A stretch of 64,000 bases of DNA, taken from positions 25,758 through 89,757 of IMG/VR virus record IMGVR_UViG_3300033066_000386; one strand, 5' to 3'. Below, piece after piece: positions 4,461-62,522 of the stretch. Every line of letters starts with the position of its first letter. Position 1 is the stretch's first letter. Below the pieces are notes generated by a model that was not told the origin of the DNA, did no database searches, and saw only the letters and a program-made list of their open reading frames with translations. The stretch is from a virus (lineage: Duplodnaviria > Caudoviricetes). A program made the translations under genes and the position numbers.

Positions 4461-4508
4461 TTCGATAATGCCATTTAATTAACCGTGTATACTCGCGCGA
4501 CTAGAACT

Positions 4509-5468
4509 CTAGTTTGCCCAACTGACTTCTCGATACCGTGCCAAGATTCGTCTCACGCTCCCCAATTCTGGGTTCTCGGCATCGCTCAATAGTGAGTAAG
4601 AGTATGCACCTAGACTCTCGCTTTGTAGTAACGCTCCCATCGGTTGGGTGCGGATCATGACCGCCGTTAGTGCCTGGCAAGCGTAGGTCAAGTCCGGGGG
4701 GATTTGATCGGGGGCATAGCCTGCGGTGTAACACACCTTGATGTTGCCCATCCCTACCGGCCATCCCGCTAGCCTTGCTGCGGAGAGCTTGCCCAATTGG
4801 AAGGTCTGTTGTCCGTAACCGCCTCCGCCCCATCCCCACCATGCACCGATGTTGCCGCCGATTCTCCGTACCAATCCTCTGTGTGAAACCATCTCTCCAT
4901 CCACCATCACGGCGTAGTTATTGCCTTGGGTTAGGAGGCTCGTGTCAGCGAATCCACCTTGACCTTGCCCGTAGTACCCTGCCGGGTTGAAGTAGATGGC
5001 TGGGCTACCCACTTGATAATCCGTTGCTAGCGTTCCCGTGCCGCCCGTGCAACCCGTGAAGGTGGTTGCCGTGGTTCCGGTGTAGGTGACAAGCGTTTGC
5101 GTTGTCGTCCCATTTTGGATCGATAGAGTCGGTGCAGGGACGTTGCTATCGCCGTTCTGTCCTGGATGGAAGCCAACCGTTGAGGCTACGTTGATGGTCC
5201 CTGTAGGCAGGGCTACTCCGTTGCTTCCTGCGGCTATCGTGGTGAGGCCCGACCATACCGGACGTTGCCGTAGAATCACGTCTACCTGGCCCGTGCCGTC
5301 GTAGAATTCCTGATAGGCTTCCATCTCCAGTCGTTGCTTGCACCACTGTTTAATCGAGGTGTCGGCAGCGTGGACCAGATTGTAGAGCCATTCATCGGAG
5401 GCCAAGGCCGGGAGATTTAAGCCCGGAATCAGCCTCACATTGGCGACGGTTGTCAGCACGTTAAGCAC
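4509..5468 (-). CDS. head-tail adaptor (gp6/gp15-like) with inserted beta-rich domain
   Basis: LVHAADTSIKQWC...IKVCYTAGY...IPPDLTYACQALTAVM...SESLGAYSYS pattern typical of head-tail connectors; position downstream of capsid genes. Confidence 0.7.
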   Translation of the reverse strand: MLNVLTTVANVRLIPGLNLPALASDEWLYNLVHAADTSIKQWCKQRLEMEAYQEFYDGTGQVDVILRQRPVWSGLTTIAAGSNGVALPTGTINVASTVGFHPGQNGDSNVPAPTLSIQNGTTTQTLVTYTGTTATTFTGCTGGTGTLATDYQVGSPAIYFNPAGYYGQGQGGFADTSLLTQGNNYAVMVDGEMVSHRGLVRRIGGNIGAWWGWGGGGYGQQTFQLGKLSAARLAGWPVGMGNIKVCYTAGYAPDQIPPDLTYACQALTAVMIRTQPMGALLQSESLGAYSYSLLSDAENPELGSVRRILARYREVSWAN

Positions 5469-5844
5469 TCACCTTTTGCAGACGTTTCTTTTCTTCCTCG
5501 GCACGCTTCTTCTCTTCCTGTCTCGTCTCGTCGAGATCGCGCATCCGCTGGATTGCCACGGCTTCCCCTAACGGGTAAATCCAGGCCACGGGCGGGATGA
5601 CGGCTTGGCGAAGGGGTTCTTCACCGCCCATGCGGGTGGGAAGCTGGCGGATCAAGGTCTTGACGCTCTTTTGTGGAACCGCACCTTTGGGGTCTTCCCA
5701 AGTACTAAGCCCGCCCTCATCCTTGGCCAAGCATTTCCAATTGCGTGAGGTCAAGTACTCGTTGCATTCATCGATTACCGATTTGTTCTGTTGCAAGAGT
5801 CCCGGTGGGGGGGCTTGCGGTCGTTTGCCTACTTCGTTTGCCAT
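5461..5844 (-). CDS. hypothetical protein
   Basis: 127-aa ORF in operon, overlaps next gene. Confidence 0.55.
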   Translation of the reverse strand: MANEVGKRPQAPPPGLLQQNKSVIDECNEYLTSRNWKCLAKDEGGLSTWEDPKGAVPQKSVKTLIRQLPTRMGGEEPLRQAVIPPVAWIYPLGEAVAIQRMRDLDETRQEEKKRAEEEKKRLQKVSA

Positions 5845-5846
5845 GA

Positions 5847-6713
5847 CTACTCTCCTACTTGAATGGTGATTCCGGCACTCGGCTTTTCCCCGATGGGAGA
5901 GCCAATGTGCTGGTTTTTGTGAACATGTTCCAAGGCTTTATCGGTTGGCCATTCTCCCCACGGATGCTCGTTGGAGAATGGGAAGTGACCCATATGCTTG
6001 AGCTTGACCTTGCGGGTGGCCATTACTTTGCCGCCCATTTTGGCGATCTCCCTTGAGATGTGCCAGTCGCTGGGGGCATGATGGGCCATCCATTTTCCGT
6101 CGTCGTTTCGTGCCACTCGGTCGTAGCCTGCGAAGTTGAGCTTGAGGATGCCGTTTTCGTCAACCTCGTTTCTCCACGCGCGACTAAAATTCATCAGAAT
6201 GCAACTGGTGTTGACCAGCAATCTCCGATCCGGGTAGCCGCAATCGACGTTATCGAAGGTCTCCGGTAGCCTATAGATTTCCTCCATCGTGATCCTACGG
6301 TGGACCAAGAAGGGGTTGTCATGACTGTCAATGGCCGTCGAGGATAGCCCGTTGAAATCCTTGATGGGTGAGACTGCCCCTAACAAGTCGCAATCGGTGC
6401 GGATCATCTCTTCCAAGAGAATGTCGATCCACCCGTTCTCCGGCACTACGTCATTGTGCAAGAGAGCGATATGCGTGATGGGGATATCGTTGGCTTCGAT
6501 GCTGTTAAGAGCCGCAGCCAAGAGGATGTTATGGCTACTAAAGCTGGTCTCGACCTGATCTTGGAATAGCTTGCCGTGCAGCTTGCTATCGGCACGCAAT
6601 GACCCTTGCCAGAATGCGCGGCTAGAGGTTGGATAGGTTTGCCCGTAAGTGCAGTGAAGACTCAGGACTCGAATGTCCTTGTAGGGGTCTTCTGATTCTT
6701 TCTCGTTGTCCAT
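5847..6713 (-). CDS. GT-A fold glycosyltransferase-like protein
   Basis: THIALLHNDVVP (DxD-equivalent), LLVNTSCIL, SDWHISR...GGKV...KLKHMG matches the layout of phage GT2-like enzymes. Confidence 0.65.
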   Translation of the reverse strand: MDNEKESEDPYKDIRVLSLHCTYGQTYPTSSRAFWQGSLRADSKLHGKLFQDQVETSFSSHNILLAAALNSIEANDIPITHIALLHNDVVPENGWIDILLEEMIRTDCDLLGAVSPIKDFNGLSSTAIDSHDNPFLVHRRITMEEIYRLPETFDNVDCGYPDRRLLVNTSCILMNFSRAWRNEVDENGILKLNFAGYDRVARNDDGKWMAHHAPSDWHISREIAKMGGKVMATRKVKLKHMGHFPFSNEHPWGEWPTDKALEHVHKNQHIGSPIGEKPSAGITIQVGE

Positions 6714-7310: not shown

Positions 7311-8417
7311 TCAATTGAGAACTACGTAAGGGCTGACGGTTGTCGAACCATCACCGGCCATCGTGATCGGGCCGCTAACTTCGGGCCGTCCATCCATGCG
7401 GAGCCAAGTGCGGAATTGCGATTGATTGTTGGCGAATAACTGCTCGGTACTGATGTCGATCATCACTTCGCTCCTCACCCCAATCGTGTAGAGCGAGGGA
7501 TCGAACAGGATCAGGTCTCCTGCCGTGCCAAGGTTGGGCAGCTTATCCGTGACGAACAAAGGTCGGGATAGCAAGTAGCCCGCTTGTCCCGGTGCTGGAT
7601 CGGCCCAGTTCGGGGTGTAGCCCGTGACCTTGGTGATTTGGCCTAGTGCCGGTGGGCTGCACACCCAGATCGAATTGGTCCAAGAGTAGGGCAGTAGTGC
7701 CGCTGCCATGTTCGAGATATCGGCGATGGCGATGGCGTTGCCACCGGCCCTTGTCACCGATTTCTTGCCTGGGCAGTTGAGGATTCCCAAAGGCATGGAC
7801 GTGGCCGCTCCTAGCCCTCGTAAGAAGGCGTATTCGGAGTACCATGCGGCAGCCTTGCCGAACAGGTTGATGAGATAAGCATCCCCACCTGGTCCCAAGT
7901 CCATGAGGAAGTTGTTGGAGACGTTGCTATAGCCGATCAAATCCCAAGCGTTCAATTCGTTCTGCTTGAACGTGGGCTCGGTCTGAGATGGTGCTTGAGA
8001 GAACCCCCACGAGAAGGTCATGCCACCGAAATAGGGAGCAACCCCTGCGGATTGAATCGTCTCCACATTCAAGCGTGGTAATAGCGTCGTGGAGGAACCC
8101 ATCGGAACTCTAGTCGCGCGAGGATAAACGATGCTATTCTCTTCAATGGTCCGCATAAGTTCCAAGCTGAACTCTTTCGGAACCAAGTAGCCGCCCACTT
8201 CTCCTGTCGTCTCTCCCATAACCGTCTTGGTGGTTTGCACTGGGCTGACGTTGTGGTGACTACCGTAGGACTTCTCCAAGGTCTCGATGGCCGCATGCCG
8301 ACGGTAAGGGTCTTTATGCGTGGAGTCCTTGACCGCCTTGAGGAAGCCAACGAAAGAGCGGTCGGCGGGTTGCTCCACCTCCGTCTCTCTCATTCGTGTG
8401 TTCAATGCGGTTGCCAT
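7311..8417 (-). CDS. HK97-fold major capsid protein, paralog 2
   Basis: GETTGEVGGYLVPKEF...EPTF...GDLILFDPSLYTIGVR...FRTWLRMDGRP...SPYVVL. Confidence 0.9.
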   Translation of the reverse strand: MATALNTRMRETEVEQPADRSFVGFLKAVKDSTHKDPYRRHAAIETLEKSYGSHHNVSPVQTTKTVMGETTGEVGGYLVPKEFSLELMRTIEENSIVYPRATRVPMGSSTTLLPRLNVETIQSAGVAPYFGGMTFSWGFSQAPSQTEPTFKQNELNAWDLIGYSNVSNNFLMDLGPGGDAYLINLFGKAAAWYSEYAFLRGLGAATSMPLGILNCPGKKSVTRAGGNAIAIADISNMAAALLPYSWTNSIWVCSPPALGQITKVTGYTPNWADPAPGQAGYLLSRPLFVTDKLPNLGTAGDLILFDPSLYTIGVRSEVMIDISTEQLFANNQSQFRTWLRMDGRPEVSGPITMAGDGSTTVSPYVVLN

Positions 8418-8527
8418 ATTAACCTTGTGTTACAATGTACTTGGGTGAACCGACGGGTTCCGTAAGTGCTTCCTTGATGCATCCTGAGTCTTGGAAGCAG
8501 CCCCACTTTTTACTACAGGAGTCTCGT

Positions 8528-9112
8528 ATGTCACTGTTTCCGATCCCAACGTTTATTTGCACGGCTTGCAAAGAGCCTAAGGAAATTCGTTTCTTCAATC
8601 TTCGTAGAGACGGTAGGCCAACTACGCAATGCAAACTTTGTCAGAGAAAACGGTGTCGAGAAGCTACCCAGAGATACCGCAAAGGCAAACGTCCTGAAAT
8701 CGTCCCTGACCCTACTTCTCGAAAATTCACTTGCATACGCTGCAAGAAAACAATGGGCGAAGAATACTTCAACAAGAATGCCGCTCGTCATCGTGGCTGT
8801 GACAACCGCTGCAAAGAGTGTTCTTCCAAGGAGGTTTTCGATAGACGACTCAGATTCCAATTCGGCATCAGCGAAGATGACTACAATCGAATGCTGAAGA
8901 AACAGAAAAATCTGTGCTTCATTTGCCGAAAACCAGAATCAGCCGTTCATATGGGAAAGACTCCCAGGCTTAGCGTTGACCACTGCCACAAAACCAACAA
9001 GGTTCGTGGGCTACTCTGTTACGCTTGCAATCACTTAATTGGCTTTCTCGAACGTCACGGTAAGGTTCAGGTCGAGAAAGCTTGGAAGTATATTGCCGAG
9101 CATTCTAGTTAG
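8528..9112 (+). CDS. endonuclease VII-like homing endonuclease, antisense, between the two capsid genes
   Basis: QFGISEDDYNRML..Q...CFIC...LSVDHCHKTNKVRGLLCYACN motif; N-terminal CxxC repeats; SD aggag before ATG 8528. Confidence 0.85.
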   Translation: MSLFPIPTFICTACKEPKEIRFFNLRRDGRPTTQCKLCQRKRCREATQRYRKGKRPEIVPDPTSRKFTCIRCKKTMGEEYFNKNAARHRGCDNRCKECSSKEVFDRRLRFQFGISEDDYNRMLKKQKNLCFICRKPESAVHMGKTPRLSVDHCHKTNKVRGLLCYACNHLIGFLERHGKVQVEKAWKYIAEHSS

Positions 9113-10521: not shown

Positions 10522-10613
10522 TGAAATATTCTCCTATTACAAAGAAGCTATGTAGTGAAGCGTTGTAGAGCGACATTCGCTCCACCGATGCTTCGATGTT
10601 TACTCGCGCGACC

Positions 10614-13600
10614 CTAAATGGCGAAACCGTAGTCCTTCAATCGATTGGTCAGTACCTTGAGGCGTTCCATGTCTTCCGGTGACAAGTCGTCGTCCTCGTC
10701 TTTTTCTTTGGTACACTTGCAATCGGACGACTTCTTTTTGCCCTTTCCTACATTGGCGAACATGGCCCGACATTCATCGTCCTGATCTTCACCCTCGCAG
10801 TCCTCACCGTAGATAATTTTTTCCTCTACAACTTCGCTAGAGGAATCCTTGGTTTCTTCCTCTTCCTCAAGGAACTCGGCCTCCTTGACCAACACCAGTT
10901 TGTTGCCCACTCGTTTGGCCGTGCCGACCTTGCGGGTGTACCACTTGAGGTTCTTCGGGTGCTGGTAGCGCTCCAGAATCTCCTCAGTGTCCTCATCGGG
11001 GTTGATGCCCACTTCCTCGTCGATGACATCTTCGTGTTCCGGCTCGGCTTCCTCTTGCTCCGCCCATTCCACGAGATCAAGGTCTTTGTCTTCGACCTCT
11101 TCGGAGATGTTGTCGTCTTCGAGGGATTTCTTTTCTTGGATGCCAGGATAGTTCTGTCTGAGCCAATGAAGAAGTTCGGTTACATTGGAGGCCCTTGCGG
11201 AGTCTATGATTTCCCCAGAGGCATCAAAGACTTCTACCAAAGGGGCTTTTGGGTCTTTCGTTAGCCTGAACTTCTCTCCCGATTTCCGCACCGACTTACG
11301 ACGCTTGCTCACCACCTCGTCTTCGGGTGGGATTTCACCGGCTTGAACCATGCCTTCCTCGCCGGGATCGGTCTCTGATCCACCCGTGCCGTCCGTCTCC
11401 ATGCCCTTCATGCACTTGTCAAGGAACTCATCGGGGTCGCCCTCACCCTTGGCGTGGTGGGTGTGCAACATGCCCTTGAGGTGTTCCATGCGGGGATCGA
11501 CGTACTTGGCCTTGTATTTGGTCAACCCCTCTTCAATGCCGGGGTGGTCGAGTTTGGAAATCTCGTCTTCGAGGAACTCCGCTTCGGCCTTGGCGTGCTG
11601 ATAGGTCTTGACGATGGATGCCGCCGATGGCTTGACCGTGAACGGCTCCTCCATCTCGATATCCTCGGCGATGAGATCGTGTGCATCGTCCTTCATGACC
11701 TGATCCTCTTCGTCCATGTCGGCTTTGCGTACCGGCTTGCTCTTGGCCACTGGTTGCTTGACCGGAGTTTTCTTTTTCATTGATTTGCCCCTTAGTTCAG
11801 AAGCAACCTTGTTGGCTTCCTGTAAAGTGTCGTAAAGCAACCCGTCTTTCGACGAAGCCACTCCCCCACCGTCCACAATTACCCTTCCGTCTGGTAGAAC
11901 GTTTTCCACGGTCTTGACCAGACCTCTCGTATCAACAATGAATTTCCCGTAGCCAGGTAGCTTGGGCTTGTCCATGAAATTGACGGCGACGACTTTCGTG
12001 GCTGGCTTAACGCTGTCAATGGAGATTGATTTCTTCTTTTTGTTGCCGCACGGACAATCGGGCTTGCCACCGCACTCGCAGGGGGGAACGGTGTAGCCAC
12101 CGCTGGCTCCGGAGGACTCGGCCAGGGATTTTTCGGCTCGTGAAAGGATCGCCTGCTGTAACTTAAGAGCTGCCCTGGAGGCTAGAGTACTTCCGTCGTC
12201 TGGGTCTCGACCCCTTACCCAAGATTGGTCAAAATAAATAGGTATAGTAACTACATCTCGTGAACCAACCGCTGCCCCAATCTCCATGTTTATTCCGGAT
12301 GGAACCCCACCAGCTCTTTGAACAGCCTTGTCTGCGATGTCATCCAAATCAGCATCAGTTAGTCTTCTTCCTTTGTAATTTGAGGGGATGGGTATGACTG
12401 CAACGATCCTACCCCCTAAAGATTTGTTAATCGACTTCCACACTTTTGGGTCATCCAGCCTATCCTTTGGCTCGGCCAGGGATTTTAGTTGTCTGTAGTT
12501 GTCGTTCTCGAAAAACCCTTTCGGGTCAACCATGAGCAGTATTCTTTCGCGAGTTGAATTACCCAACTTGATTGGTGTGTCCAACTGCACCGTTGCTTGC
12601 CCAAAGTTTCCACCGGCTGTATCGTTGTGAATCCCGGTGATACGTCCTTTGAAATCACTCTCCCCCAATCCTGGGACTGAGTAATGCCCTTCAACGTGCA
12701 TTCCTACTGACAACTTTTTCCCTTTAGTCACGGCTTTCGACTTGCACCCACAGTCCTTCTTGGCGGCTTTTGCTACTTCAATTTCGTCGCCATCGTATCT
12801 CTGAATTTCTCCGTCGTCCATTTCCACGATATATTGAGCCAATCTGCCTGAGCCGCGAACTTCCTCTATCTTTCCTTTGCCATGGCGACTCTGCACCCGA
12901 TCCCCGACCTTAAAGGAATAACCCCGGTCAAGACGAGAGTCCCCGCGAGGAGCGTTGTTTCTTAGTGAAGATTTCTTCACGGTGCAATCTCCGTTCGGAC
13001 ACCACCCCGACCACACAATTCCTTGTTCCTTGCGGCTCTTGGCGGCATAGGGCTTCAAGGCTTTTTGCAGTCTGGGAGTGATGAAGGATTTCTCTTTGTC
13101 GAGGCTGTCACGGATGGCCCCGGCGTTGGCGGGGACTCCGACGATGCTCGTTTCGGTGTGATCCCATGAATCGAATCGCCACCCCGAAGGACGGGTATCG
13201 CGTGGATTCGACTTGTACATCTCTTCCCGGCGTTGAGCGATGAGCGGGACGAATGCAATGCTCGTGGCGTTGAGAATTCCGCGCTGAACCTTCCCGAATA
13301 CGAACATCGCGTCGGGGTCGGCACGGTCGGGGTAGAAATTGGAGATGCACTTATCCCGCTGGGAAACCACCGCTATCGATCCATCAGGTGCGCGGCTCGT
13401 TCCAATGGGGATTTCCCATTCCTGATGGCCGAAGAACCACACGGGATTATTCGCGTAGTTTTTGCCTACTCGACCCATCGGCACGACGATATCTCCATCC
13501 CGATCCTCTTCCAGGGTGGTGATGATGAATTGGATATAGTCGTTGGTGGACCCGCTCAAGTTGGCCGATCCGCTCCGGCCCATGCCCAAAGCGGAGTTGC

Positions 13601-15587: not shown

Positions 15588-15716
15588 GCAACTTCTCCCC
15601 TAGTGCGGAACAGAGGATGATTTCAAGAGCAAATAGCAAATTGCCGGGTAGGTCCGAGGCATGCTCTTTTGCATAACCCATATAGACTCGCGCGACTAGA
15701 TATACCTGATTCATGA

Positions 15717-16055
15717 TTACACCAATCCGTTAACGCCTTGAATTCCACACGCTTCATTGAACATCTGCCGTAGCCTGCCCTTGATGAGCATCTCATCCCC
15801 ATCACGGCATCGCCCCTCATTGGCAGCCCATACACATATCCGTAGTTGATCTTGAGAGAAGGGGATATCGAGCGGTTCCCTCATGTTGGGAGCGATGGTG
15901 GAATCGATCATCTCGTCGAATCGGGAGATGAGTGCCATTCGTGTGGCCGTCTCTCCGGCACTGCGCGTCTGCACATTCCTCACGGCGAACACGAACCATC
16001 GCAGATCGTTGAGGGTGATACGCAGCGTGGTGACTGATTGAACTTCTTCACTCAT
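15717..16055 (-). CDS. hypothetical protein
   Basis: 112-aa ORF in operon. Confidence 0.55.
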   Translation of the reverse strand: MSEEVQSVTTLRITLNDLRWFVFAVRNVQTRSAGETATRMALISRFDEMIDSTIAPNMREPLDIPFSQDQLRICVWAANEGRCRDGDEMLIKGRLRQMFNEACGIQGVNGLV

Positions 16056-16064: not shown

Positions 16065-16367
16065 TCACGAATTGTCGGGAACGTTGGTAGGTTCCACCAT
16101 CTCAACAGTTTGCCCAGACAGACTATGTTGGCAGTCTCCGCAATATTCGATTTTACCTCCACGAACGTGGTAGTGGCAGATCGTTTCTTCCGCGCGGTTT
16201 TCCCCTGCCGGGATGTAGTGCCTAACAGACGGCGACAACGTTGGGGATTCCTCATCACCATTCCAATGCCATCGCTCGGCAGGTACTCCGTGAAGATGTT
16301 TACAGCCTGGGCAGTGATACCAAACGTGCTGAACACCTTGATAATTTCTGACGGCTACCTTATTCAT
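16065..16367 (-). CDS. DUF6527-like Cys/His zinc-binding protein
   Basis: CPGCKHLH...WHWNGDEESPTLSPSV...CHYHVRGGKIEYCGDCQH. Confidence 0.65.
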   Translation of the reverse strand: MNKVAVRNYQGVQHVWYHCPGCKHLHGVPAERWHWNGDEESPTLSPSVRHYIPAGENRAEETICHYHVRGGKIEYCGDCQHSLSGQTVEMVEPTNVPDNS

Positions 16368-17140
16368 TCCATTTCCTCCGTCATCGAGCAGCTACAGTGA
16401 GGATGCCTCGGCGGACACATTACCCGTGCATAGGGGCCGGTTCCATCTACGACAAAAGGTTCGTTCAACCTCACCAATTTGCCCTCTAGTTCCGCGCACT
16501 TGGGGCAGCAGTCCCAACTACTAAGCCACCGCTTGTGCGTTGCCCCCGCCTCTTGTGCAGCATCGATTTGGCCCAGGTGGGTGAATCGGCTCGACTCCGT
16601 TTGTGCTATTGTAAACGCTCGGTTGGGGTTGGAGAATATCTCCCGTATCTTTTTTGCCAGGAGCTTGTGGGCTGCACCGGCTTCTAGACCCTCCCGCATC
16701 AGTTGGCGTAGGTTGACCATTGCCGTCTTGAGGTCCGTGGTTGCCGTCTCTAGCGTGGACCTAGCGAAGATGAAGGTGTGGTTGTCCACGGCGTCTAGTA
16801 TCTTCGGGTTGAATAGCTCGAAGTCCTCTTCGATGGTTGCTGCCTTGAAGATGGCACGTTGGAGCCGTTTCTTGGTTCCGAATGCCCTATCGGTGGGTAG
16901 GGTGTGGCTTGCGATACCCGTTTGTAGTCGCGCGAGTCTACTTGCTGCCTGCATGATGCCAGTCTGGTACTGATCCGTCATCACGGGCTTGATCGCTTCC
17001 ACAGTCACGCTCACCCACGGGGTCAAGTCGGGGACCGTCATCTTGTCCATGTCGATCCTCGACGCAACCTCTCTGGCCTGCAACGTGAATATGCGCTGAA
17101 GGATTCTTTGGAGCGTCAAGGCGTTGTTGCTTTTCTTCAT
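16364..17140 (-). CDS. MuF/gp7-like minor head morphogenesis protein
   Basis: RAFTIAQTESSR...KRWLSSWDCCPKC..LEG...PPRHPHCSC. Confidence 0.88.
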   Translation of the reverse strand: MKKSNNALTLQRILQRIFTLQAREVASRIDMDKMTVPDLTPWVSVTVEAIKPVMTDQYQTGIMQAASRLARLQTGIASHTLPTDRAFGTKKRLQRAIFKAATIEEDFELFNPKILDAVDNHTFIFARSTLETATTDLKTAMVNLRQLMREGLEAGAAHKLLAKKIREIFSNPNRAFTIAQTESSRFTHLGQIDAAQEAGATHKRWLSSWDCCPKCAELEGKLVRLNEPFVVDGTGPYARVMCPPRHPHCSCSMTEEME

Positions 17141-20062: not shown

Positions 20063-20089
20063 TCTCCAAACTGAGTTGTACTCGCGCGA

Positions 20090-37390: not shown

Positions 37391-37436
37391 TGCTTTGCTC
37401 CAATCGAGTTAGGCTCGCGCGAGTAAATACGGGTAA

Positions 37437-42310: not shown

Positions 42311-42349
42311 AATTTAAACTCCATTCTTAGTCGCGCGACCTTAACTGTC

Positions 42350-44469: not shown

Positions 44470-44514
44470 AATTCACTCCCATGTATAGTCGCGCGAGTGA
44501 GCTTCGCTTAAAAA

Positions 44515-45646: not shown

Positions 45647-45672
45647 GCTACACCCCGATTCTACTCGCGCGA

Positions 45673-47510: not shown

Positions 47511-48114
47511 TGGGCACTGGCACGATTTGGATGGTCCGTTGTTGTAGTGCGCGGAGCAAGTCTGGATGTTGACCCAATACGTCCTTGGCCGCTTCCTTGA
47601 AGGCCCGAACCAATTCCAAGGCTTGCTCCAAGGTGATCGTCCTATCCTTCGTTTCGTCTAGACCTAGCAGCTCCCTCTCGGCCTTCAAGGTGTTCATGAT
47701 CGTGGTCAGATAGGTATTCTCCGGCAGCCTTCCCTCGATGGTCACGATCCGCTTGATGCGCTGTTCGGAACACTCCAAGCCCTCATCCTCCACCACCGCA
47801 TACTCGGATTGCTCCTTGAACGTATCCTTCTGACTCCGGTCATAGGCCAACCATGCCTCACGCCTAATGTCCCGATATTCCTCCAGCTTGGCACGAACCT
47901 TGGCCGCGCGGTCCTCAACCTCTTGCCTCTTGTAGTCCTCCCGAATCTTCTTCAAGTAGACCGAGATCATCGGTTGACTCAGGTCGAACCCCTCTCGGAG
48001 TAGCGCATCCTTGATGTCGAACTGCCCGAACCCCCTCCGGTCCATCTTGGCAATCAATGCCCTGACCTGGCTCCGTTGCGTCTTCGTCAGTTTGTTTGCC
48101 TTGCTTGCCGTCAT
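47473..48114 (-). CDS. putative terminase small subunit
   Basis: N-terminal HTH (GFGQFDIKDAL...SQPMISVYLK), helical middle, AERELLGLD; upstream of TerL. Confidence 0.65.
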   Translation of the reverse strand: MTASKANKLTKTQRSQVRALIAKMDRRGFGQFDIKDALLREGFDLSQPMISVYLKKIREDYKRQEVEDRAAKVRAKLEEYRDIRREAWLAYDRSQKDTFKEQSEYAVVEDEGLECSEQRIKRIVTIEGRLPENTYLTTIMNTLKAERELLGLDETKDRTITLEQALELVRAFKEAAKDVLGQHPDLLRALQQRTIQIVPVPIESKPSELQSRD

Positions 48115-48180
48115 AATGCCCTATGTATAATGCGATTCATTTGTCGTCGGTCATTGCTAGTCGCGCGACTCTAAACGTCG

Positions 48181-49014
48181 TTAAAACAATCCGCCCACCG
48201 CATGTTTTCTTTCCGCTTCCTCAAATCTTAGTCTACGCTCGTGTGCGGCTTGCGTGCGTTGCCTTGCTATCTTGCAATAATCCTCATGCACGTCAATGCC
48301 GATGCACAGCCTACCCGTATCCCTTGCCATTTTCGTGGTGGTCCCCGATCCCACAAAAGGGTCCAGCACCAAGTCCCCAACGTTGGACCACGATAGGATG
48401 TGGTCGCGTGCTAGGGCTTCTGGAAATGGTGCAGGGTGTTCCGTTAGTTGAGCCGGTTGCTCTCTCCAAACGTTGGTACGTTTCCCGTACTTTTTCCTAA
48501 CCACGATTCTTGATTCACTCGACTTATCAGCCCTCAAATTGCAGTTCACTTTGACCTGCCCGTTAGAAACTACGTTAAGGCGATCTTCAATTAGATTTAG
48601 AGACTTGGGCTTCCCGTTGGACATGACGAAAACGTATTCAAAGTTCTGCCCATAGCAATCTTGACTACCTAACGCTCCGCTGCCAGTCTTTTCCCAAATC
48701 ATCGTGTCGTGCAACCGCAGCCCGCATACGTCCTTGAAGTGCAGGGCTTGGCGGAAGCTGGTTCCCGTCTCGCTGCCGTCAATCGTGGCATCGGCCACCA
48801 CCCATACGATGACTCCACCCGGCTTAAGAATGCGAGTCAGTTGCTCGGCCACGCCCTCGAAGTTCCACGAATGCCCCCCATAAACACGAAGAGAATCGTA
48901 GGGCGGGCTAGTCACCACCAAGTCGATGCAGGCGTCTGGGAACGTCTTCATGACCTTGACGTTATCCCCGCACACGATTTGATTCAGCGGCAGCCTTGGA
49001 CGTATCGGAGGCAT
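48181..49014 (-). CDS. DNA methyltransferase (N4-C/N6-A, beta class)
   Basis: LVVTSPPY, HPAPFP, VLDPFVGSGTT. Confidence 0.92.
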   Translation of the reverse strand: MPPIRPRLPLNQIVCGDNVKVMKTFPDACIDLVVTSPPYDSLRVYGGHSWNFEGVAEQLTRILKPGGVIVWVVADATIDGSETGTSFRQALHFKDVCGLRLHDTMIWEKTGSGALGSQDCYGQNFEYVFVMSNGKPKSLNLIEDRLNVVSNGQVKVNCNLRADKSSESRIVVRKKYGKRTNVWREQPAQLTEHPAPFPEALARDHILSWSNVGDLVLDPFVGSGTTTKMARDTGRLCIGIDVHEDYCKIARQRTQAAHERRLRFEEAERKHAVGGLF

Positions 49015-49238
49015 TAGAGCACATCCCCCTCACACGGTTCGTATTCGTCGTACACCTCGCCCGTGCCACTGCATGTGCCGCACTTAACTCCCACACAGCC
49101 ATTGCAGCACTCTCGGCAACCAACCCCCTTACACACAAGACATTCTCCCTTGATTACGGCGTAGCCCTCACAGTCGGGGCATTCCTTCATTGGCCCGTTG
49201 GTGTAGGGGTTTTCGTCCCCAAATGCTTCTAAGCTCAT
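49014..49238 (-). CDS. DnaJ-type zinc-finger small protein
   Basis: Repeated CxxCxGxG. Confidence 0.6.
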   Translation of the reverse strand: MSLEAFGDENPYTNGPMKECPDCEGYAVIKGECLVCKGVGCRECCNGCVGVKCGTCSGTGEVYDEYEPCEGDVL

Positions 49239-49492
49239 CGTAGAATCTCCTCTAGTCTAGCCAGCTTGTTCTTGTCGCCGTGGTAACAGAATAGTTCGAG
49301 CAGCTTGTATTGCAGGCTGATGTATTTAGCAACGGCAGTGGACCTGCTCAACATTTCTAGCCCATCCACTACGGTCGTTCCCACATGCTCGACTCCCTTG
49401 ATCATTAGTATGGCTTCACGGATGACTTCGGCTTGATCTTCACCGTAGTCCTTGTCTAAAACAACAGTCAAGTTTCGCACCTTGTCGCTCAT
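49235..49492 (-). CDS. hypothetical protein
   Basis: Start refined to MSDKVRNL. Confidence 0.5.
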   Translation of the reverse strand: MSDKVRNLTVVLDKDYGEDQAEVIREAILMIKGVEHVGTTVVDGLEMLSRSTAVAKYISLQYKLLELFCYHGDKNKLARLEEILR

Positions 49493-49876
49493 GATGCCTT
49501 CTCCCTTACCGTTAGCGTTACTCCCGTGCCATCCCAGTCCTCTACGATCCATCCTATACCAAAGAATCAGCGGGATTGCGATGCCAAGAGATTGGCCCCC
49601 ACCTTGATGGCGGATAGCTCCACATCCGTAACCGTAGTCGCGCGAGAAGAAACGCACTTCACGACGATCTTGGCACGCTTCTTGTTTTCGTCTCTATCCA
49701 GCTCGATCAAGTGTCCTGCCACGGTGCGCGATAGTCCGGTGTAGATCGACATGATTCGAGCGTCCCTTAAGGTCTTCATGACTAGCGTAGATTTCATGTT
49801 GCTCCTCCATTTGAACCTGGCTCGTTTAAGTATAAGCCGGAAGGAGAGGAAAGTAAACGTTACGGTTCGGCCCAAT

Positions 49877-50338: not shown

Positions 50339-50585
50339 TTCTTGCTCCTCAAAAAGAATTTCCCCGATTGCCCTTGCCACTATCCTATCGCACACACTAC
50401 AATTGTTATGTACGACCTTAAGATGGCCAGGGGGACGCACACACAACAAAAACACCATAGGTGTTTAGGATTCAGAAAAAATCAGAAACCACACATCCGC
50501 TAACCAGTCATCCACCGCCTCAATCCATTCCTTCATAACACCCTCCTAGCTGAGTTCTACTCGCGCGAGTAACGTAGTCCATACA

Positions 50586-51195: not shown

Positions 51196-51498
51196 CTAGA
51201 ACGGTATCGGTTCTTCGACTTTTACTCGCGCGAGACTAACTAGACCATCGAATACGCGATGGCAGCCCTTGCACATGGGTCGGTAGCAATCGGGGTTCTT
51301 TAGCACGTCCCGATATCGCCTATCCAAGCCTCTGCTAGGACCCTTGAGGCCCGTGGGCTTGACGTGGGCGGCATGCTCGGAGGGTTGCTTGCAGAACACG
51401 CATTGCACCCCGATGAGCGTCAATGCCCTAGTCTTGAGCCGTTGCCGATACGTGCGGTTCCTGTCCTTGCCCTCAACCATAGCTGGCAACCTCCGCAT
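51196..51498 (-). CDS. HNH-like zinc-binding nuclease
   Basis: CVFC...HAAHV...MCKGCH; ends PIPF. Confidence 0.6.
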   Translation of the reverse strand: MRRLPAMVEGKDRNRTYRQRLKTRALTLIGVQCVFCKQPSEHAAHVKPTGLKGPSRGLDRRYRDVLKNPDCYRPMCKGCHRVFDGLVSLARVKVEEPIPF

Positions 51499-53244: not shown

Positions 53245-53994
53245 CTATTGGAAAAGCGAGTTCTCTGATCGTCCCTTATGTGCCTCTTCCGCCAGCCGCA
53301 ACCGTTCCATCCTATCCCATTCCTTTTGCATCCTCTCGGCAGCGATCTTGCAGTACTTCTCCTCAATCTCGATGCCGGTGAATTTCCTTCCCAGCCTGAT
53401 GCAAGCCACTCCGGTGGTCCCCGATCCGGTGAATGGGTCCAAGACAGCCCCTCGTACTGATATGCCAAGCAGCTCTAAAATTAGGCTAAGCGGTTTTGTA
53501 TGGGGGTGGCCTGTCTCAGATGTTGTTCCTGACTGACCCTCCAACGTTCTGAAGACGCAAGAGCGTTCTACGTTTCTGGTTGGCCACTCTCCTACCAAGA
53601 ATATCGGTTCGGCGTCCCTACGTAGACCAGTTACCGATCCAACCAATCCAGAATCAGGAGGCTTATGCCATACGCATACCTGCTTCACTCTCAACGGATA
53701 GGGTGCGTAGAAAGAGCCAAAAACTATACCTGGAAAATCCAACATTCCCAACACGCTATCTCTTAGTGAGGTATCTTCGTCCCCTAGAATCCCTGAGTGA
53801 GACTTGCTAGCCCGCTGATTGTTTGTGCCACGCTTCCAAGCTATCCCATACGGTGGGTCGGTGACAACGGCGTCCACCTTGCCTAACAGGGGCAGAATCT
53901 TGAGGCAGTCGCCGTGGTAGAGGACGTGATTACCGCAAGGGCTTTTCCAATACGGTTCTGGGAGTCTGGGTCTAATTGGAGGCATTGGTATCAT
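53245..53994 (-). CDS. DNA adenine methyltransferase (beta class)
   Basis: VVTDPPY, HPHTKP, VLDPFTGSGTT; second ATG at 53985 gives MPPIRP start. Confidence 0.9.
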   Translation of the reverse strand: MIPMPPIRPRLPEPYWKSPCGNHVLYHGDCLKILPLLGKVDAVVTDPPYGIAWKRGTNNQRASKSHSGILGDEDTSLRDSVLGMLDFPGIVFGSFYAPYPLRVKQVCVWHKPPDSGLVGSVTGLRRDAEPIFLVGEWPTRNVERSCVFRTLEGQSGTTSETGHPHTKPLSLILELLGISVRGAVLDPFTGSGTTGVACIRLGRKFTGIEIEEKYCKIAAERMQKEWDRMERLRLAEEAHKGRSENSLFQ

Positions 53995-55253: not shown

Positions 55254-55589
55254 ATGCCAAAGAAAGCCGATTATGTCCTCCGTAAGCCGCAAGTCCGTAT
55301 TCTGAAAGCACTTGCGAAATCCAAGTCCCGGCACGGACTAACGCGTGCCGAGATTGCGGAGGCTGCCAGCGTGTCCCCATCCATGACCGCCAACTTGGGT
55401 CCACTTGATCCCAAGCAAGTAAAAACCATCGAAGGCAAGTACGGCAAGCGGTCCCTGATGGAACTCAAGTACGTTGAATCGCGGGAGATTCCGGCCAACT
55501 TGGACGACGATACCGGAGAGGCCACCAGCTTTTATCTGCGCTATCTCATTACGGATGCCGGGAAGCAAGCACTTGAGACTCTGAAATAA
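55254..55589 (+). CDS. winged-helix transcription regulator (MarR/PadR-like)
   Basis: QVRILKAL...GLTRAEIAEAASVS...YVE...YLITDAGKQAL; SD aaggag. Confidence 0.65.
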   Translation: MPKKADYVLRKPQVRILKALAKSKSRHGLTRAEIAEAASVSPSMTANLGPLDPKQVKTIEGKYGKRSLMELKYVESREIPANLDDDTGEATSFYLRYLITDAGKQALETLK

Positions 55590-56235
55590 CCCCCTCATGT
55601 CGTCTCGTATCGCCCTTCGGGTAGGGCAGTACCTTGTATCTCAAGGCTGCCCTGGCTTTCTTGGTGAACCGTTTATTGCCAACGAACGTCACATATCGAT
55701 GCTTCCCCTTCTGCTTCTTTTTGATTAACTCGGTCCATTCCAATCCCATCGCTTCCGCCTTCGTGTCAATATGCCTACGGGTCATGGACACCACCGATCC
55801 ATCGTAAGGATGGAGCCAAATGGGTTCGGCGTTACCATGCCCGGTGTAAGTCCAATTCGTGGCCTGGTAGACGTAGCCCACATGACCCACATGCTCGTTG
55901 CAATCGGCGTAGCTGACCACGATCCAATCTTCCTTGCCCAACTCCCTCAAGGCTGCCCCGATCAGCTTGGAAGCGGCATTACGTTCTTTGGTGACGATGA
56001 CTAGCCTGGATAGCTCTAGCACTTGCTTGGAATACTCAGGGCCGCATACCCCCTTGCATAGCGTGTAGGATGCCGGGATGGAGAAGCACACGCACCCGAT
56101 TAACTGCTCGTTTCGATACAGCCCCCAGCAATACTTGATGGGTGGGGTTCTGCCGCTGTAATGATGCTTGAGAATCATTTCCTTACATGATTCCTTGCTC
56201 AGTTCCCCTACGGATGATGGACGGATTGGAGGCAT
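55549..56235 (-). CDS. Mom-like (GNAT-fold) DNA base modification enzyme
   Basis: HHYSGR...LIGCVCF...LELSRL...ASKLIG...VVSYAD...GHVGYVYQATNWTYTG. Confidence 0.78.
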   Translation of the reverse strand: MPPIRPSSVGELSKESCKEMILKHHYSGRTPPIKYCWGLYRNEQLIGCVCFSIPASYTLCKGVCGPEYSKQVLELSRLVIVTKERNAASKLIGAALRELGKEDWIVVSYADCNEHVGHVGYVYQATNWTYTGHGNAEPIWLHPYDGSVVSMTRRHIDTKAEAMGLEWTELIKKKQKGKHRYVTFVGNKRFTKKARAALRYKVLPYPKGDTRRHEGVISESQVLASRHP

Positions 56236-58456: not shown

Positions 58457-59182
58457 TCAATCGAATAATGAGTTGCGGTTGTGGTAGTTCTGCTCGGCGA
58501 TCCTCAGCCTCTCCATGCGTTCCCATTCCTCTTGCAAGCGTCTAGCCGATGCCTTACAAAACTGTTCTTTTAACTCGATGCCGGTGAATCTAAACCCTAA
58601 CCGAATGGCCGCTACGCCGGTGGTTCCTGACCCGCAGAATGGATCAAGTATCGTCTTGAACCCCTGAGGCAAATGTCCCAAACACCACAGCATCACGCCA
58701 ACCGGCTTTTGGGTAGGATGATCGCCACGAGGCTCTTTGTTTTCTCTCAACATTCCGTTCCAGCGATACTTGATCCTACGTACTGCCTTGTCAAGATTGG
58801 TCCAAGCTAGTTCACAATCAGCGAAATCACTTTCACCATTTTCCTTATCCCAGACTAGATAGCACTTGGTTGGACCTAAGTCATAGTAGTTTCCTCCGAA
58901 CACGATTGATTTACTTGCAGACGCTACCGCCTTTTCCATCGTGGCGTCGTCTATTGGTTTGTCATCCCAATCTTCGTCGCCATAATCTTTGGATATGGCC
59001 AGCTTTCCTCGCGACTTATTCTTCCCAGCAGCCTCACCAATGCCATAGGGAGGGTCCGTCACCACGGCGTCAACCTTTCCCAACAGCGGCAATATCTTCA
59101 AGCAATCCACGTGGTAGAGGACGTGGTGGCCGTCAGGGGATTTCCAATAGGGTTCCGGTAGTCTGGTTCGGATTGGGGGCAT
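58457..59182 (-). CDS. DNA adenine methyltransferase (beta class) inserted within polA
   Basis: VVTDPPY, HPTQKP, ILDPFCGSGTT. Confidence 0.92.
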   Translation of the reverse strand: MPPIRTRLPEPYWKSPDGHHVLYHVDCLKILPLLGKVDAVVTDPPYGIGEAAGKNKSRGKLAISKDYGDEDWDDKPIDDATMEKAVASASKSIVFGGNYYDLGPTKCYLVWDKENGESDFADCELAWTNLDKAVRRIKYRWNGMLRENKEPRGDHPTQKPVGVMLWCLGHLPQGFKTILDPFCGSGTTGVAAIRLGFRFTGIELKEQFCKASARRLQEEWERMERLRIAEQNYHNRNSLFD

Positions 59183-59890: not shown

Positions 59891-60256
59891 TTACTTGGAT
59901 TGGGCTAAGTCTTCGATTCCGAACTTAACGCGGTAGCTGTCTAACACGTCCTTCGCTTCAAACGTGCTGTATGACTCCTCTGATTCCCGCATTTCCAATG
60001 TACCTACAGCCCAAGTCAAATATTGTGCGTCCGTCTCGCACAGGATCAGGTTGAGATTGCCGAACCGAACCGGCTCTTTACCATTCTCTGACATTCGGCG
60101 TAGGAAGTCTGCCGTTTCAGGGTCCACCCTAATCGCCAAGTCAACGTCCGATTCATCCGTTGGCTTGCCGTAGACGAACGATCCGGTTACGAATGCTCCA
60201 TTACCGATGTCCCCGTGGACCTTCGGTAGTGATTTCTTAGGATTCTTCTTTGGCAT
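59891..60256 (-). CDS. minimal nucleotidyltransferase (Pol beta-like/MNT)
   Basis: FVTGSFVYG...ESDVDLAI. Confidence 0.7.
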   Translation of the reverse strand: MPKKNPKKSLPKVHGDIGNGAFVTGSFVYGKPTDESDVDLAIRVDPETADFLRRMSENGKEPVRFGNLNLILCETDAQYLTWAVGTLEMRESEESYSTFEAKDVLDSYRVKFGIEDLAQSK

Positions 60257-60271
60257 TTCGTTCTCCTTGAA

Positions 60272-60305
60272 CTAAAGAAGATGGGGACGCTAGTAACGCC
60301 CCCAT
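60272..60305 (-). terminator. putative rho-independent terminator
   Basis: atgggg...ccccat stem then cttcttt on the minus strand, after SSB-like gene. Confidence 0.4.
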
Positions 60306-60334
60306 CGTGTCTAGTCGGTCGCGCGACTACAACT

Positions 60335-61435
60335 CTACTCTTCGACAGCCGACAACTCCGTGAGAGGAATTGGAATCGGCTTTTTGCCCTTGTCGAGAAT
60401 GGGCTTGCCGTTGCTAACCATCTTCACCGTGCAAGTGCCGTTCTTGGTGTTGATCGTTTGGACCTGAATTTGGTCCTTGAGCTTCTTCTTCGGGTTGGCC
60501 GGATCGGGGTGGGTCCACACGTAGATGTTGTTCACCTCGACCGTGAACTCTTCCGATGCCGTGCCCTCATCGCCAGCCCGTGCCTTCTCGATCATCGCCA
60601 CCACATCGTCCCAGTTGTCGGCAGCGGTAACGTCCTTATCGGGGATGCCTGCTGCCAAGGCGATTTCCGTCAAGCGGTCCACGGCGGTATCGTCACCATC
60701 GGCAGCCAGCTTTGCCAAGGCTTCCAAGTCTTCGGCCTCCGCTTCCGGCTTCGGTTCGGGGTCTTTCTTCTTGCCCTTGGTTGCCGTGGTGGTGGAGGGC
60801 TTTTCGGGTTCCGGCTCGTTCACCTTCACGTCGTCGGAGGCATCTTCCACGAAGTCCTCCAGTCCCTTCGTGCCGTACCAATTGTGATCCCATACGCCTG
60901 AGTTGGGGTAATCCTTGGTGGGTTCCTTGCTGCGGGTGGCGAATTTAAACTTGATGCACTGCTCGACTAACGTATCGAACAAAGCGTCGATGTCGGCATC
61001 GTCTTCCACGTCGTCCAAGCAGTTGGGTCCACCGAGCTTCTTGATCTCGTTGGCTGCCCGTGCCTCGTTCTCCTCTTGGGTGGCGATGACCGTGCCATCC
61101 TTCTTCTTCGTCTCGCAAAGCGGAATCATGATGTTGGTGAACAAGCCCTCGATGTTCATTTCCTTGGTGGAGTAGATTTCCACCTTGCCGTCCTTCCACA
61201 CCTTCTTCACGTCCGTGGCCGTCTTCGGGCTGATGACGCTACCCTCGAAGCGAAGGAACTCCTTGCCCTGATTTGGCCCCGACTTGTACTTGCCCCGCTT
61301 TATGGAGGCGAGCTTGGCCACTCCGTCGTGGATATCCCCCGGCAGGTCGGTTCGATCAGTGCCGAAGTCGATGGGGGCCTCCGCATGTTTCTTCATGTTC
61401 GATGCGAAGGACGATTTCTTTACCTGTGCTGCCAT
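60335..61435 (-). CDS. putative single-stranded DNA-binding/recombination protein with acidic linker
   Basis: OB-like N-terminus, Asp/Glu-rich, adjacent to helicase and Sak4-like ATPase; function inferred from context. Confidence 0.45.
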   Translation of the reverse strand: MAAQVKKSSFASNMKKHAEAPIDFGTDRTDLPGDIHDGVAKLASIKRGKYKSGPNQGKEFLRFEGSVISPKTATDVKKVWKDGKVEIYSTKEMNIEGLFTNIMIPLCETKKKDGTVIATQEENEARAANEIKKLGGPNCLDDVEDDADIDALFDTLVEQCIKFKFATRSKEPTKDYPNSGVWDHNWYGTKGLEDFVEDASDDVKVNEPEPEKPSTTTATKGKKKDPEPKPEAEAEDLEALAKLAADGDDTAVDRLTEIALAAGIPDKDVTAADNWDDVVAMIEKARAGDEGTASEEFTVEVNNIYVWTHPDPANPKKKLKDQIQVQTINTKNGTCTVKMVSNGKPILDKGKKPIPIPLTELSAVEE

Positions 61436-61481
61436 TACTGATGCTCCTCTGAAAATGAAACGGTTGGTTGACTCGGTTGAT

Positions 61482-62522
61482 TTAGTTTGCTAACACCCAT
61501 GTTAATTGATTCTTGGCCCGGCTAGCCGAAGTGTAGGTCCATCTTGCCATATCCCATTTGCTGCACTTCTGCTCGATGACGCATACGTGATCCGCCTCCG
61601 ACCCCTGGAATTTGTGGGTGGTGCAGCAATAGGCGTAGTCGAAGGGAATGAGGTTGCGGTCGTATTGCGGCTTGTTCTGGGAACCGAAAGCATCGGGGTT
61701 ATACCGGCAAGTGTATTTTATCCCATCCGACTCCATCGTTAGAAAAGGCGTATCTAGTCGCGCGAGTACACCTTGCATGCCGTTGAAAACTTTGGCGTCC
61801 TTGTCGTTCTGTAGGCACATGATGCGGTCGCCCACGCATGGATCGGGACCGTAGCCCAATTCCTCCCGATAGCTCTTGTTGATATTGACGCGAGTGGCGT
61901 TATAGGCACATAGCACCTGGTCTACGTGGGGCCAATCCACGGTGTCCATCTGATGCGTGCGGATGATCCTAACCTTGCCTTCCTTGCTCTTCCACGTCCG
62001 CGCATCGTTGCCCTTACGGAGATGGTCTGCAAACCGCGCGATTTCACCGGCATTGCGATGGATGGTTTCGAGTGTGATATCGGGCTGTAACATCAGGTTA
62101 AAGGAACCATCCCCAATCGGCTCTAGTTGGCCATGATCGCCGATGACGATGATGGGCAAGCCAAATCCTGTCAAGTCATCCCACAAAGGCTTGGGGACCA
62201 TGCTGCCCTCGTCGATGATGATGCCATCGCAATCCAAGTAGGGCTTGAGAAGGAATTCATCCAATTCCTTGTCGTAGTAATAGATCAAGCTATGGATAGT
62301 AGACGCCCCTGACACGCCCTTGGATCGTAGCACTTGAGCGGCCTTGCCCGTGTAGGAACAGGCATGCCATTGGTCCAACTCTTCCATCAGGGTTTGCACC
62401 AAGGTTGATTTTCCTGTTCCACCGATGCCCCCCATGATGCGTACTTGCTTTGGCGAGTGGATCAAGAAATCCACCGCCGCCATTTGCTCATCCGTCAACT
62501 CAATTCCGGTTTTGGTAATCAC
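61482..62522 (-). CDS. SF1B RecD/Dda-like helicase
   Basis: GIGGTGKST, SYTGKAA, TIHSLIY, IIIDEGSMV, GDHGQLEP, TTHKFQGSE, YTSASRA. Confidence 0.9.
   Translation of the reverse strand: MITKTGIELTDEQMAAVDFLIHSPKQVRIMGGIGGTGKSTLVQTLMEELDQWHACSYTGKAAQVLRSKGVSGASTIHSLIYYYDKELDEFLLKPYLDCDGIIIDEGSMVPKPLWDDLTGFGLPIIVIGDHGQLEPIGDGSFNLMLQPDITLETIHRNAGEIARFADHLRKGNDARTWKSKEGKVRIIRTHQMDTVDWPHVDQVLCAYNATRVNINKSYREELGYGPDPCVGDRIMCLQNDKDAKVFNGMQGVLARLDTPFLTMESDGIKYTCRYNPDAFGSQNKPQYDRNLIPFDYAYCCTTHKFQGSEADHVCVIEQKCSKWDMARWTYTSASRAKNQLTWVLAN

Follow-up and report, generated by a model that had tools for sequence, protein, structure and literature searches.

Dispersed dyad repeats have been described in the Cluster O mycobacteriophages, which carry a 17-bp word, TGTTCGGNNNCCGAACA, made of two 7-bp arms around a 3-bp spacer (PMC4351075). 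Corndog, a phage of this cluster, has 34 copies with invariant arms, of which about 14 fall between genes, 10 are close to gene starts, and 10 are within genes; the Cluster O phages have no integrase, and the authors predicted a dimeric binder and left the function unexplained (PMC4351075). Here, we analyze a palindromic element with the 8-bp core TCGCGCGA that is scattered over the genome of a tailed phage (Duplodnaviria; Caudoviricetes), the one-contig virus record IMGVR_UViG_3300033066_000386 of IMG/VR, which is 89,757 bp long and is rated 100% complete and linear. The window refers to the whole stretch of 64,000 nucleotides that was analyzed, i.e., bases 25758-89757 of that record, and positions are given in the window unless they are marked as genome positions.

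The Cluster O dyad repeat is the closest known analogue of this element. In both cases, more than 30 copies with dyad symmetry, an invariant core, and a few one-off variants are spread over a phage genome of 70-90 kb; genes hold about a third of the copies, roughly a third to half are intergenic, and some stand close to the start of a gene; no integrase was found (of the tyrosine type in the present phage), and the phage is not obviously temperate. The sequences, however, are unrelated and the TGTTCGGNNNCCGAACA word is not shared. The present element has a contiguous invariant 8-bp G+C center and looser A+T-rich arms over 26 bp, it belongs to a different phage family, its sites adjoin the upstream stop codon, and it is also set apart by the evidence of selection against hairpins that is given below. 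Similar repeats are, in short, already known in other phages, and what differs here is the sequence, the architecture, the lineage, and the stop-adjacent placement.

Other repeated words of phages and bacteria resemble the element less closely. The stoperators of Cluster A mycobacteriophages are asymmetric sites of 13-14 bp, read by a monomer and oriented with transcription, which serve the immunity repressor of temperate phages; one phage protein bound to these sites halts the elongating polymerase (PMC9283540, PMC6550527). Like stoperators, the sites analyzed here are dozens of short lineage-specific words distributed genome-wide, many of them in short intergenic gaps, and the working model that we propose would also have a bound phage protein stopping the elongating polymerase. 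Unlike stoperators, they are symmetric and without orientation, and no tyrosine integrase was found, and for these reasons a strict stoperator-like repression network, as envisaged in a first-pass annotation of the window, is a poor fit. Cluster K mycobacteriophages carry start-associated sequences and an extended form of them (PMC4351075). The resemblance to these lies in a repeated short word just upstream of the ribosome-binding sites (RBSs) and starts of many genes; the present palindrome, however, stands 5-11 nt before the RBS and is also found far from starts and inside genes. A start-associated sequence is asymmetric and includes the RBS itself.

Among cellular repeats, the cyanobacterial HIP1 word (GCGATCGC) is likewise an over-represented 8-bp palindrome in and between genes, but it is a feature of host genomes with little flanking consensus and no known junction bias, whereas the present element has a 26-bp consensus and a strong junction bias in a genome from which CGATCG is absent. 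The matS/MatP, Noc, SlmA, and parS/ParB systems use tens of dispersed palindromes of 12-16 bp that are read by one dimeric protein, MatP having a ribbon-helix-helix domain. Those are, however, bacterial chromosome systems with known partners and unrelated sequences, and no ParB_N domain (PF02195) was matched in the phage genome. Unlike REP elements and intrinsic terminators, the element has no stable hairpin kept by compensating changes.

Enrichment and anatomy of the element

The core TCGCGCGA occurs exactly 24 times in the window, at the places where the first-pass annotation had counted at least 24, whereas dinucleotide-preserving shuffles gave a mean of 1.21 and a maximum of 4; the G+C content, put at about 55% in the first-pass estimate of one or two chance cores, is 52.5% when measured. 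All seven perfect 14-mers, TASTCGCGCGASTA, that had been listed were recovered (4490, 20079, 25744, 28365, 45662, 50558, and 61755), none being expected by chance. The whole genome has 39 cores, where about 1.8 would be expected on one strand and 3.6 over both strands; perfect 14-mers account for 14 of the cores, and in an unbiased count of 8-mers TCGCGCGA is the most enriched by far (z = 39). The enrichment survived a codon-preserving shuffle in which the proteins and the codon usage of each gene were fixed (mean 1.76, maximum 6, vs. 20 cores in called genes, 10 of which lie deep inside genes). The core is all-or-none, as its 24 one-mismatch variants total 31 copies against 41 expected. There is one site per 2.3 kb and the spacing of the copies looks random (coefficient of variation 0.83); a periodic or clustered layout was rejected. 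The scarcity noticed earlier between 51.3 and 60.3 kb is a real gap and yet not an unusual one, since every second random placement has a gap at least this long. In the literature, the 8-mer was found solely in primers and unrelated uses.

Aligned on the coding strand, the 39 copies give the symmetric 26-mer CATTTnTAS-TCGCGCGA-STAnAAAYG (written out, CATTTnTASTCGCGCGASTAnAAAYG), which consists of the invariant 8-bp center and two looser 9-bp arms and extends well past the 14 bp first annotated. The position matrix is mirror-symmetric to 13 bp on each side of the center, the left column counts matching the right complements. At the junction sites genome-wide, no conserved position was found beyond 13 bp in either direction, and no orientation signal was found in or around the sites. 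Flank scores exceed the 99.9th percentile of the genome in about 33 of the 39 copies, and a few copies (e.g., that at genome base 497) are probably chance occurrences or a different element. Only three one-mismatch variants have good flanks (35967, 6176, and 43101).

A palindrome of this kind could act either as a folded strand or as duplex DNA, and the arms distinguish between the two. The S/S pair at mirror positions 0/9 is complementary in 17 of 39 copies, with 16.3 expected by chance, and the n/n pair at positions -3/12 is complementary in only 3 of 39, with 10.2 expected. RNA folding of the 30-nt element gave a mean of -3.8 kcal/mol vs. -4.0 kcal/mol for random 30-mers of the genome; when left and right arms were swapped between copies, the mean was -5.05 kcal/mol, so that the real copies fold worse than the swapped ones, and folding as weak as that of the real set was not reached in any of 300 permutations. 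On the covariation test, the folding energies, and the comparison with swapped arms, an RNA hairpin or a DNA cruciform was rejected. Each arm holds to the consensus independently, and there seems to be avoidance of long perfect palindromes. Independent arms without hairpin potential argue for half-sites on duplex DNA that would be read by a dimeric protein, and not for a folded strand. The earlier suggestion that a dimeric protein binds the word fits the 26-bp symmetry, the non-covarying arms, and the lack of a hairpin, while the sequence did not single out the binder.

In four copies, the usual arm is replaced by an extra 9-nt arm, GACTACGT, which reads GACTCCGT in one of them (window 50552-50577 and 38669-38694; genome 25564-25589 and 734-759). 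One of the four is opposite in sense to the other three, and the extension is missing from the copy near genome 25573 in a close strain (contig L284). The distribution of this arm hints at copying between copies.

Placement of the copies relative to genes

By a crude gene call, genes cover 86% of the DNA and 108 of 118 lie on the minus strand, and 21 of the 39 copies nevertheless fall outside called genes (P = 5e-9). Several further copies lie within the final 11-27 nt of a gene, or only slightly inside an open reading frame (ORF) that was called too long. The upstream frame of about 19 sites closes somewhere from 18 nt ahead of the 14-mer to its first 3 nt, the TAG or TAA of the arm sometimes being the stop codon of the upstream gene; at about 11 sites, an RBS and a start codon follow within 15-26 nt. 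In long junctions, all eight sites adjoin the upstream stop codon (combined P = 0.0015 on these crude gene calls). The copies in the window are given in Table 1.

The copies inside genes use all three frames, reading S-R-D/E, S/T-R-A-S/T, or L-A-R-L/V, and a shared peptide was rejected as their cause. In the second capsid gene, the core falls on an Arg-Ala pair that does not vary among six homologues, and the next conserved residue, Val, has become Arg in this lineage, which gives the flank CTAGA; the left flank of the same copy is TAG in a close strain and TCC in this phage. What is kept is a DNA word, not a peptide. Selection on the word inside unrelated genes, as proposed by the first-pass annotation, is supported at the DNA level by the three frames, the invariant Arg-Ala core, and the fit of the Val-to-Arg flank, and the labels given to those genes (second capsid, MuF, SprT, ThDP enzyme, epimerase/SDR, GIY-YIG, and helicase) also hold.

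Distribution among relatives and in other genomes

The capsid protein has hundreds of relatives. None of the GenBank phages is close to this phage. Six sequencing runs hold contigs whose capsid is 96% identical and whose DNA is 88-90% identical; the copy at the junction before the major capsid gene is kept in 6 of 6 of them, and the copy within the second capsid gene in all four that extend that far. The 9.6-kb contig L284, which is 94-97% identical in DNA, has kept all five of its copies. Altogether, strains with 88-97% DNA identity have kept 7 of 7 comparable sites, and one of these has drifted towards the consensus. No core was found in a relative with 76% capsid identity, and neither the core nor any comparably enriched word was found in five relatives with 58-65% capsid identity, in the 19-21 kb around their capsid genes. 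A word that is kept in close strains and absent from relatives at 58-76% is indicative of a young or short-lived word. In the 76% relative (L326 1028-1151), the junction before the capsid gene has two ordinary hairpins and no copy of the palindrome.

One exact 14-mer variant had only scattered single chance matches in IMG/VR. An 18-nt pattern, searched in metagenomes and in one genome per prokaryote species, gave among the matches listed only single sites per locus, except for one phage-like contig, which is L284. That contig is binned in a 2.5-Mb genome (G001) labelled Candidatus Saccharibacteria; outside the contig, the bin has only background (2 near-perfect 14-mers vs. 7 for a control pattern), and its oligonucleotide habits are opposite to those of the phage, with 2020 copies of CGATCG vs. 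0 in the phage, which makes the binning doubtful as host evidence. In 201 genomes from the phylum of one Planctomycetales-labelled match, there were 0-2 perfect 14-mers each, like the control pattern. A host-wide repeat was not found in the genomes searched, and the concern that the word might be a generic host repeat did not hold for any host-like genome among them. Four unrelated IMG/VR contigs (L020, L043, L057, and L068) have two STCGCGCGAS sites each, exactly 626 nt apart, which is probably a shared conserved gene.

Avoidance of other palindromes and gene content of the phage

With the TCGCGCGA motif masked, 23 of the 64 six-base palindromes have an observed/expected ratio below 0.25 in the whole genome. 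CGATCG, CGGCCG, CGTACG, CTGCAG, GGGCCC, GGTACC, and GTCGAC have zero copies for 11-38 expected each, CGATCG being the one with 38. This depletion is a strong signature of restriction-site avoidance and points to many restriction systems in the host or in the history of the phage. As the genome has been purged of other palindromes, a palindrome kept in 39 copies is unlikely to be neutral. A second 8-bp palindrome, CCGCGCGG, has 12 copies vs. 4.9 expected in a high-order model (window 57196, 56855, 47905, 41292, 35295, 33024, 26407, and 16191, and four upstream of the window). Every copy of it is within genes, the flanks are not shared, and CCGCGG itself is avoided; it is probably a codon effect or a side effect of avoidance and not a site family.

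Among the products of the phage are MuF, a split large terminase, the capsid proteins of two genes of HK97 type, and a portal that has NUDIX and LAGLIDADG parts; there are also several helicases and a DNA polymerase of family A that is divided between two genes. A CDP-sugar pathway is also encoded, as are at least three N6/N4 DNA methyltransferases and a Mom-like (Mom-family) protein; three methyltransferases and the Mom-family protein are at 48181-49014, 53245-53994, 55549-56235, and 58457-59182. In the family A polymerase, the exonuclease gene is separated from the polymerase gene by one of the methyltransferase genes. Two proteins with MutS domain I, one of them fused to a UvrD-type helicase, are encoded at L071 4153-6486 (-) and 6715-8307 (-), with a tRNA-Ile (anticodon TAT) between the two genes at 6637-6709. 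An endonuclease VII gene (8435-9112, +) lies on the opposite strand between both capsid genes and is kept there in the 96% and 76% relatives. Neither a transposase nor a tyrosine integrase was found in this genome, rated as complete (serine recombinases were not searched for), and neither sigma-70 region 2 of a sigma factor nor the motif of a DxDGD-type RNA polymerase was found in the phage. The phage is probably lytic and is probably transcribed by the host polymerase.

Table 1. Copies of the element in the window and candidate DNA-binding proteins of the phage (window positions unless marked as genome; a point stands for no strand)
Feature	Position	Strand	Remarks
Perfect 14-mer, gene junction	4484-4509	.	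Arm overlaps stop codon of gene 4509-5468 (-)
Degenerate copy, core ACGCGCGA, good flanks	6167-6192	.	Flank score 14.2
Copy in second capsid gene (7311-8417, -)	8105-8130	.	Core on invariant Arg-Ala
Junction, 1087-aa gene / major capsid gene	10595-10620	.	Stop touches arm; capsid start 79 nt on; identical in close strains
Junction copy	15679-15704	.	18 nt past stop of gene 15717-16055 (-)
Copy in MuF-like gene (16364-17140, -)	16919-16944	.	
Perfect junction copy	20073-20098	.	Arm overlaps stop of gene 20090-20314; RBS and ATG of 809-aa gene 22 nt later
Perfect copy, divergent region between portal gene (-) and plus-strand group starting at 25862	25738-25763	.	
Copy in last 25 nt of SprT-like gene (+)	26908-26933	.	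34 nt before ribbon-helix-helix gene 26962-27180
Perfect copy in ThDP enzyme gene (28086-29855, -)	28359-28384	.	
Copy in epimerase/SDR gene (30519-31469, -)	30654-30679	.	
Copy in GIY-YIG gene (33252-33539, -)	33445-33470	.	
Degenerate copy, core TCGTGCGA, good flanks	35958-35983	.	Flank score 14.6
Junction copy	37406-37431	.	21 nt before RBS and ATG of sugar dehydratase gene 36437-37390
Copy in last 11 nt of gene 38664-39167 (-)	38669-38694	.	
Copy in weakly called small ORF (40754-41053, -)	40924-40949	.	
Junction after terminase nuclease gene	42322-42347	.	8 nt past stop, 17 nt before next ATG
Degenerate copy, core TCGCTCGA, good flanks	43092-43117	.	Flank score 10.0
Junction copy	44480-44505	.	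15 nt past stop, 16 nt before next ATG
Perfect junction copy	45656-45681	.	Arm overlaps stop; ATG of 218-aa gene 44990-45646 15 nt later
Junction copy, 3' end of gene 47473-48114 (-)	47468-47493	.	RBS and ATG 20 nt later
Junction after methyltransferase gene 48181-49014 (-)	48152-48177	.	
Copy 9 nt inside longest reading of ORF 49235-49657 (-)	49629-49654	.	Placement ambiguous
Perfect junction copy with GACTACGT arm extension	50552-50577	.	RBS and ATG of 24-codon ORF 21 nt later
Copy in last 27 nt of gene 51196-51498 (-)	51217-51242	.	Next ATG 35 nt on
Junction copy	60310-60335	.	5 nt past stop of gene 60335-61435; then terminator-like hairpin
Perfect copy in RecD/UvrD-like helicase gene (61482-62522, -)	61749-61774	.	
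Candidate binder P0121, 72-aa ribbon-helix-helix	26962-27180	+	TacA1-like; weak match to Arc-like repressors
Candidate binder P0122, 66-aa paralogous ribbon-helix-helix	14594-14794	+	41% identical to P0121
DNA-binding candidate, 173 aa, several helix-turn-helix units	32088-32609	-	Could also be small terminase subunit
DNA-binding candidate, HNH-like 218-aa protein	44990-45646		Weak winged-helix match
DNA-binding candidate, HARE-HTH protein	genome 3682-4125		

Candidate binders and proposed mode of action

Dimers of the ribbon-helix-helix fold (e.g., MetJ, Arc, and CopG) insert a two-stranded sheet into a single major groove and read a contiguous palindromic center, whereas most helix-turn-helix dimers read two separated half-sites. 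Since this fold would suit a contiguous palindromic center such as TCGCGCGA, we favor a ribbon-helix-helix dimer, and one of the two paralogous proteins of this type, P0121 and P0122, is the best candidate binder. The otherwise minus-strand genome has two small groups of plus-strand genes, and each group has one of these two genes at its end or close to it. The divergent promoter region of the P0121 operon contains a perfect copy, in addition to the copy shortly before the P0121 gene itself. The match of P0121 to a CopG-family chain is not significant (E = 0.54), and no relatives of it were found beyond its own cluster; none of the candidates, P0122 included, was found near the capsid genes in the loci of five relatives without the motif.

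The junction bias and the position at stop codons lead us to propose that a bound dimer modulates read-through at gene junctions. A dimeric phage protein would read each site one half at a time; most sites would have been placed and kept in the short gaps between co-directional genes, directly past the upstream stop codon; and the bound protein may act as a roadblock, a pause site, or an insulator on the RNA polymerase that reads through the long one-strand operons. In this way, one factor could switch many gene junctions together. As a whole, the reading of the copies as lineage-specific, two-fold symmetric sites on double-stranded DNA, at which a phage dimer acts on read-through at junctions, is our leading yet tentative explanation, to which we give somewhat less than an even chance; the binding, the identity of the binder, and the effect on transcription are the parts that we infer.

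Several observations weigh against this proposal. The helix-turn-helix, HNH/winged-helix, and HARE-HTH proteins also have sites nearby, and at a density of one site per 2.3 kb a candidate gene that adjoins a site means little. At least ten copies are deep in genes, where a roadblock would cut the message short, and the sites are without orientation, unlike stoperators. Nothing ties them to transcription signals, either in scans of the 40-60 kb stretch or in the junction flanks genome-wide, and the gene calls, on which the stop-codon statistics depend, are crude. The stop-adjacent sites could moreover be the cheapest parking spot off the start signals of the next gene, which fits a non-transcriptional role equally.

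A bolder form of the read-through proposal can be conceived for this probably lytic phage, in which one small dimer and about 40 sites make up a genome-wide punctuation that gates read-through at about 25 junctions. We regard this full form as rather unlikely. A wilder variant, for a genome stripped of almost every other palindrome, is that the word is a self-mark, which would let a phage protein tell phage DNA from host DNA.

Alternative explanations

The strongest alternative is that a dimer on the same sites compacts, partitions, protects, or marks the phage DNA, much as the matS/MatP, Noc, and SlmA sites serve bacterial chromosomes, intergenic positions being those of least cost. The evidence from symmetry and arm-independence serves this explanation as well as it serves the read-through proposal, and the random-looking spacing over the whole genome, the quarter of copies deep in genes, and the lack of any fixed relation to the promoter-like signals found all agree with it. 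Stop-adjacent positions off the next start signals would fit parking, and a word essentially absent from the bacterial genomes searched could tell phage from host DNA. On the other hand, no ParB-type protein was found, the link to junctions (P = 5e-9) is tighter than cost-saving alone needs, and we know of no such genome-organization system established in phages. We consider organization or self-marking unlikely, with about half the odds of action on read-through.

Conceivably, the palindrome is, or overlaps, a phage promoter, whose reader would be an unrecognised polymerase of the phage or the RNA polymerase of the host together with a phage factor, in which case messages would begin just before the RBS. 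The approximately 11 sites that stand 15-26 nt before a start codon with an RBS would suit such an element, and the right arm, TAnAAA, weakly resembles a -10 box. Promoter-like and terminator-like sites, including sigma-70-type promoters, are not enriched in the 40-60 kb stretch of the window, so that other signals must exist. However, the sites are symmetric with no orientation signal in a genome with nearly all called genes (108/118) on one strand; at the longer junctions, they adjoin the upstream stop and not the downstream start; ten copies are deep in genes; and, apart from the missing sigma region 2 and DxDGD motif, the large proteins scanned match no polymerase family. This makes a promoter element improbable, and the same holds for message starts just before the RBS.

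Still less probable is a HIP1-like word that a methyltransferase and biased mismatch repair make and maintain without a binding function. The phage does encode modification and MutS-domain-I genes, and the all-or-none center (39 perfect copies vs. 31 one-off variants, 41 expected) also speaks for it. The one-off variants are, however, just mildly under expectation, the symmetric conservation spans 26 bp, the bias to junctions is strong and is accompanied by stop-codon adjacency, and CGATCG, the HIP1 core, is wholly absent (0 vs. 38 expected).

A structural element, whether an RNA hairpin (a terminator, a processing or stability signal, or a REP-like element), a DNA cruciform, or a Z-DNA-prone CGCGCG tract, is slightly less probable again. 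A position right after stop codons recalls REP elements and terminators, and CGCGCG is the classic Z-DNA hexamer. The arms are, however, without covariation, their folding is no better than random and worse than with swapped arms, the element has no T run after it, and the 40-60 kb stretch shows no enrichment of terminator-like sites; six alternating base pairs would be marginal for Z-DNA. One junction has a true terminator-like hairpin further downstream, a G+C-rich 10-bp stem with a T-rich tail at 60255-60309 (minus strand), just downstream of the copy at 60319, and it is the sole clear structure of this kind seen beside a copy.

The least probable explanation is that the repeats promote module exchange at junctions or are small mobile insertions, for although they lie exactly at gene boundaries and the GACTACGT arm of four copies, missing at one in a close strain, hints at copying, the mosaic breakpoints between two close strains and this phage are not at sites (which leaves the gene-shuffling role once suggested without support), the 7 comparable sites are all present in both close strains with no presence/absence differences, neither a transposase nor a tyrosine integrase was found, and at the rearrangements examined in Cluster O repeats were similarly few or absent (PMC4351075).

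Significance

Dispersed dyad repeats in phages that are not obviously temperate were described in Cluster O and were never explained. The present phage provides a second, unrelated, and unusually clean case, with an invariant center, independent arms, evidence of selection against hairpins, and sites at junctions. The word has appeared or vanished quickly among relatives, and the candidate binders are few and small. If one factor controls at least 25 junctions, this would be a compact regulatory design, and its recognition would help in annotating operons in uncultivated phages. A punctuation system of this kind, if true, would for the first time provide a mechanism for orphan dyad repeats such as those in Cluster O and similar phages.

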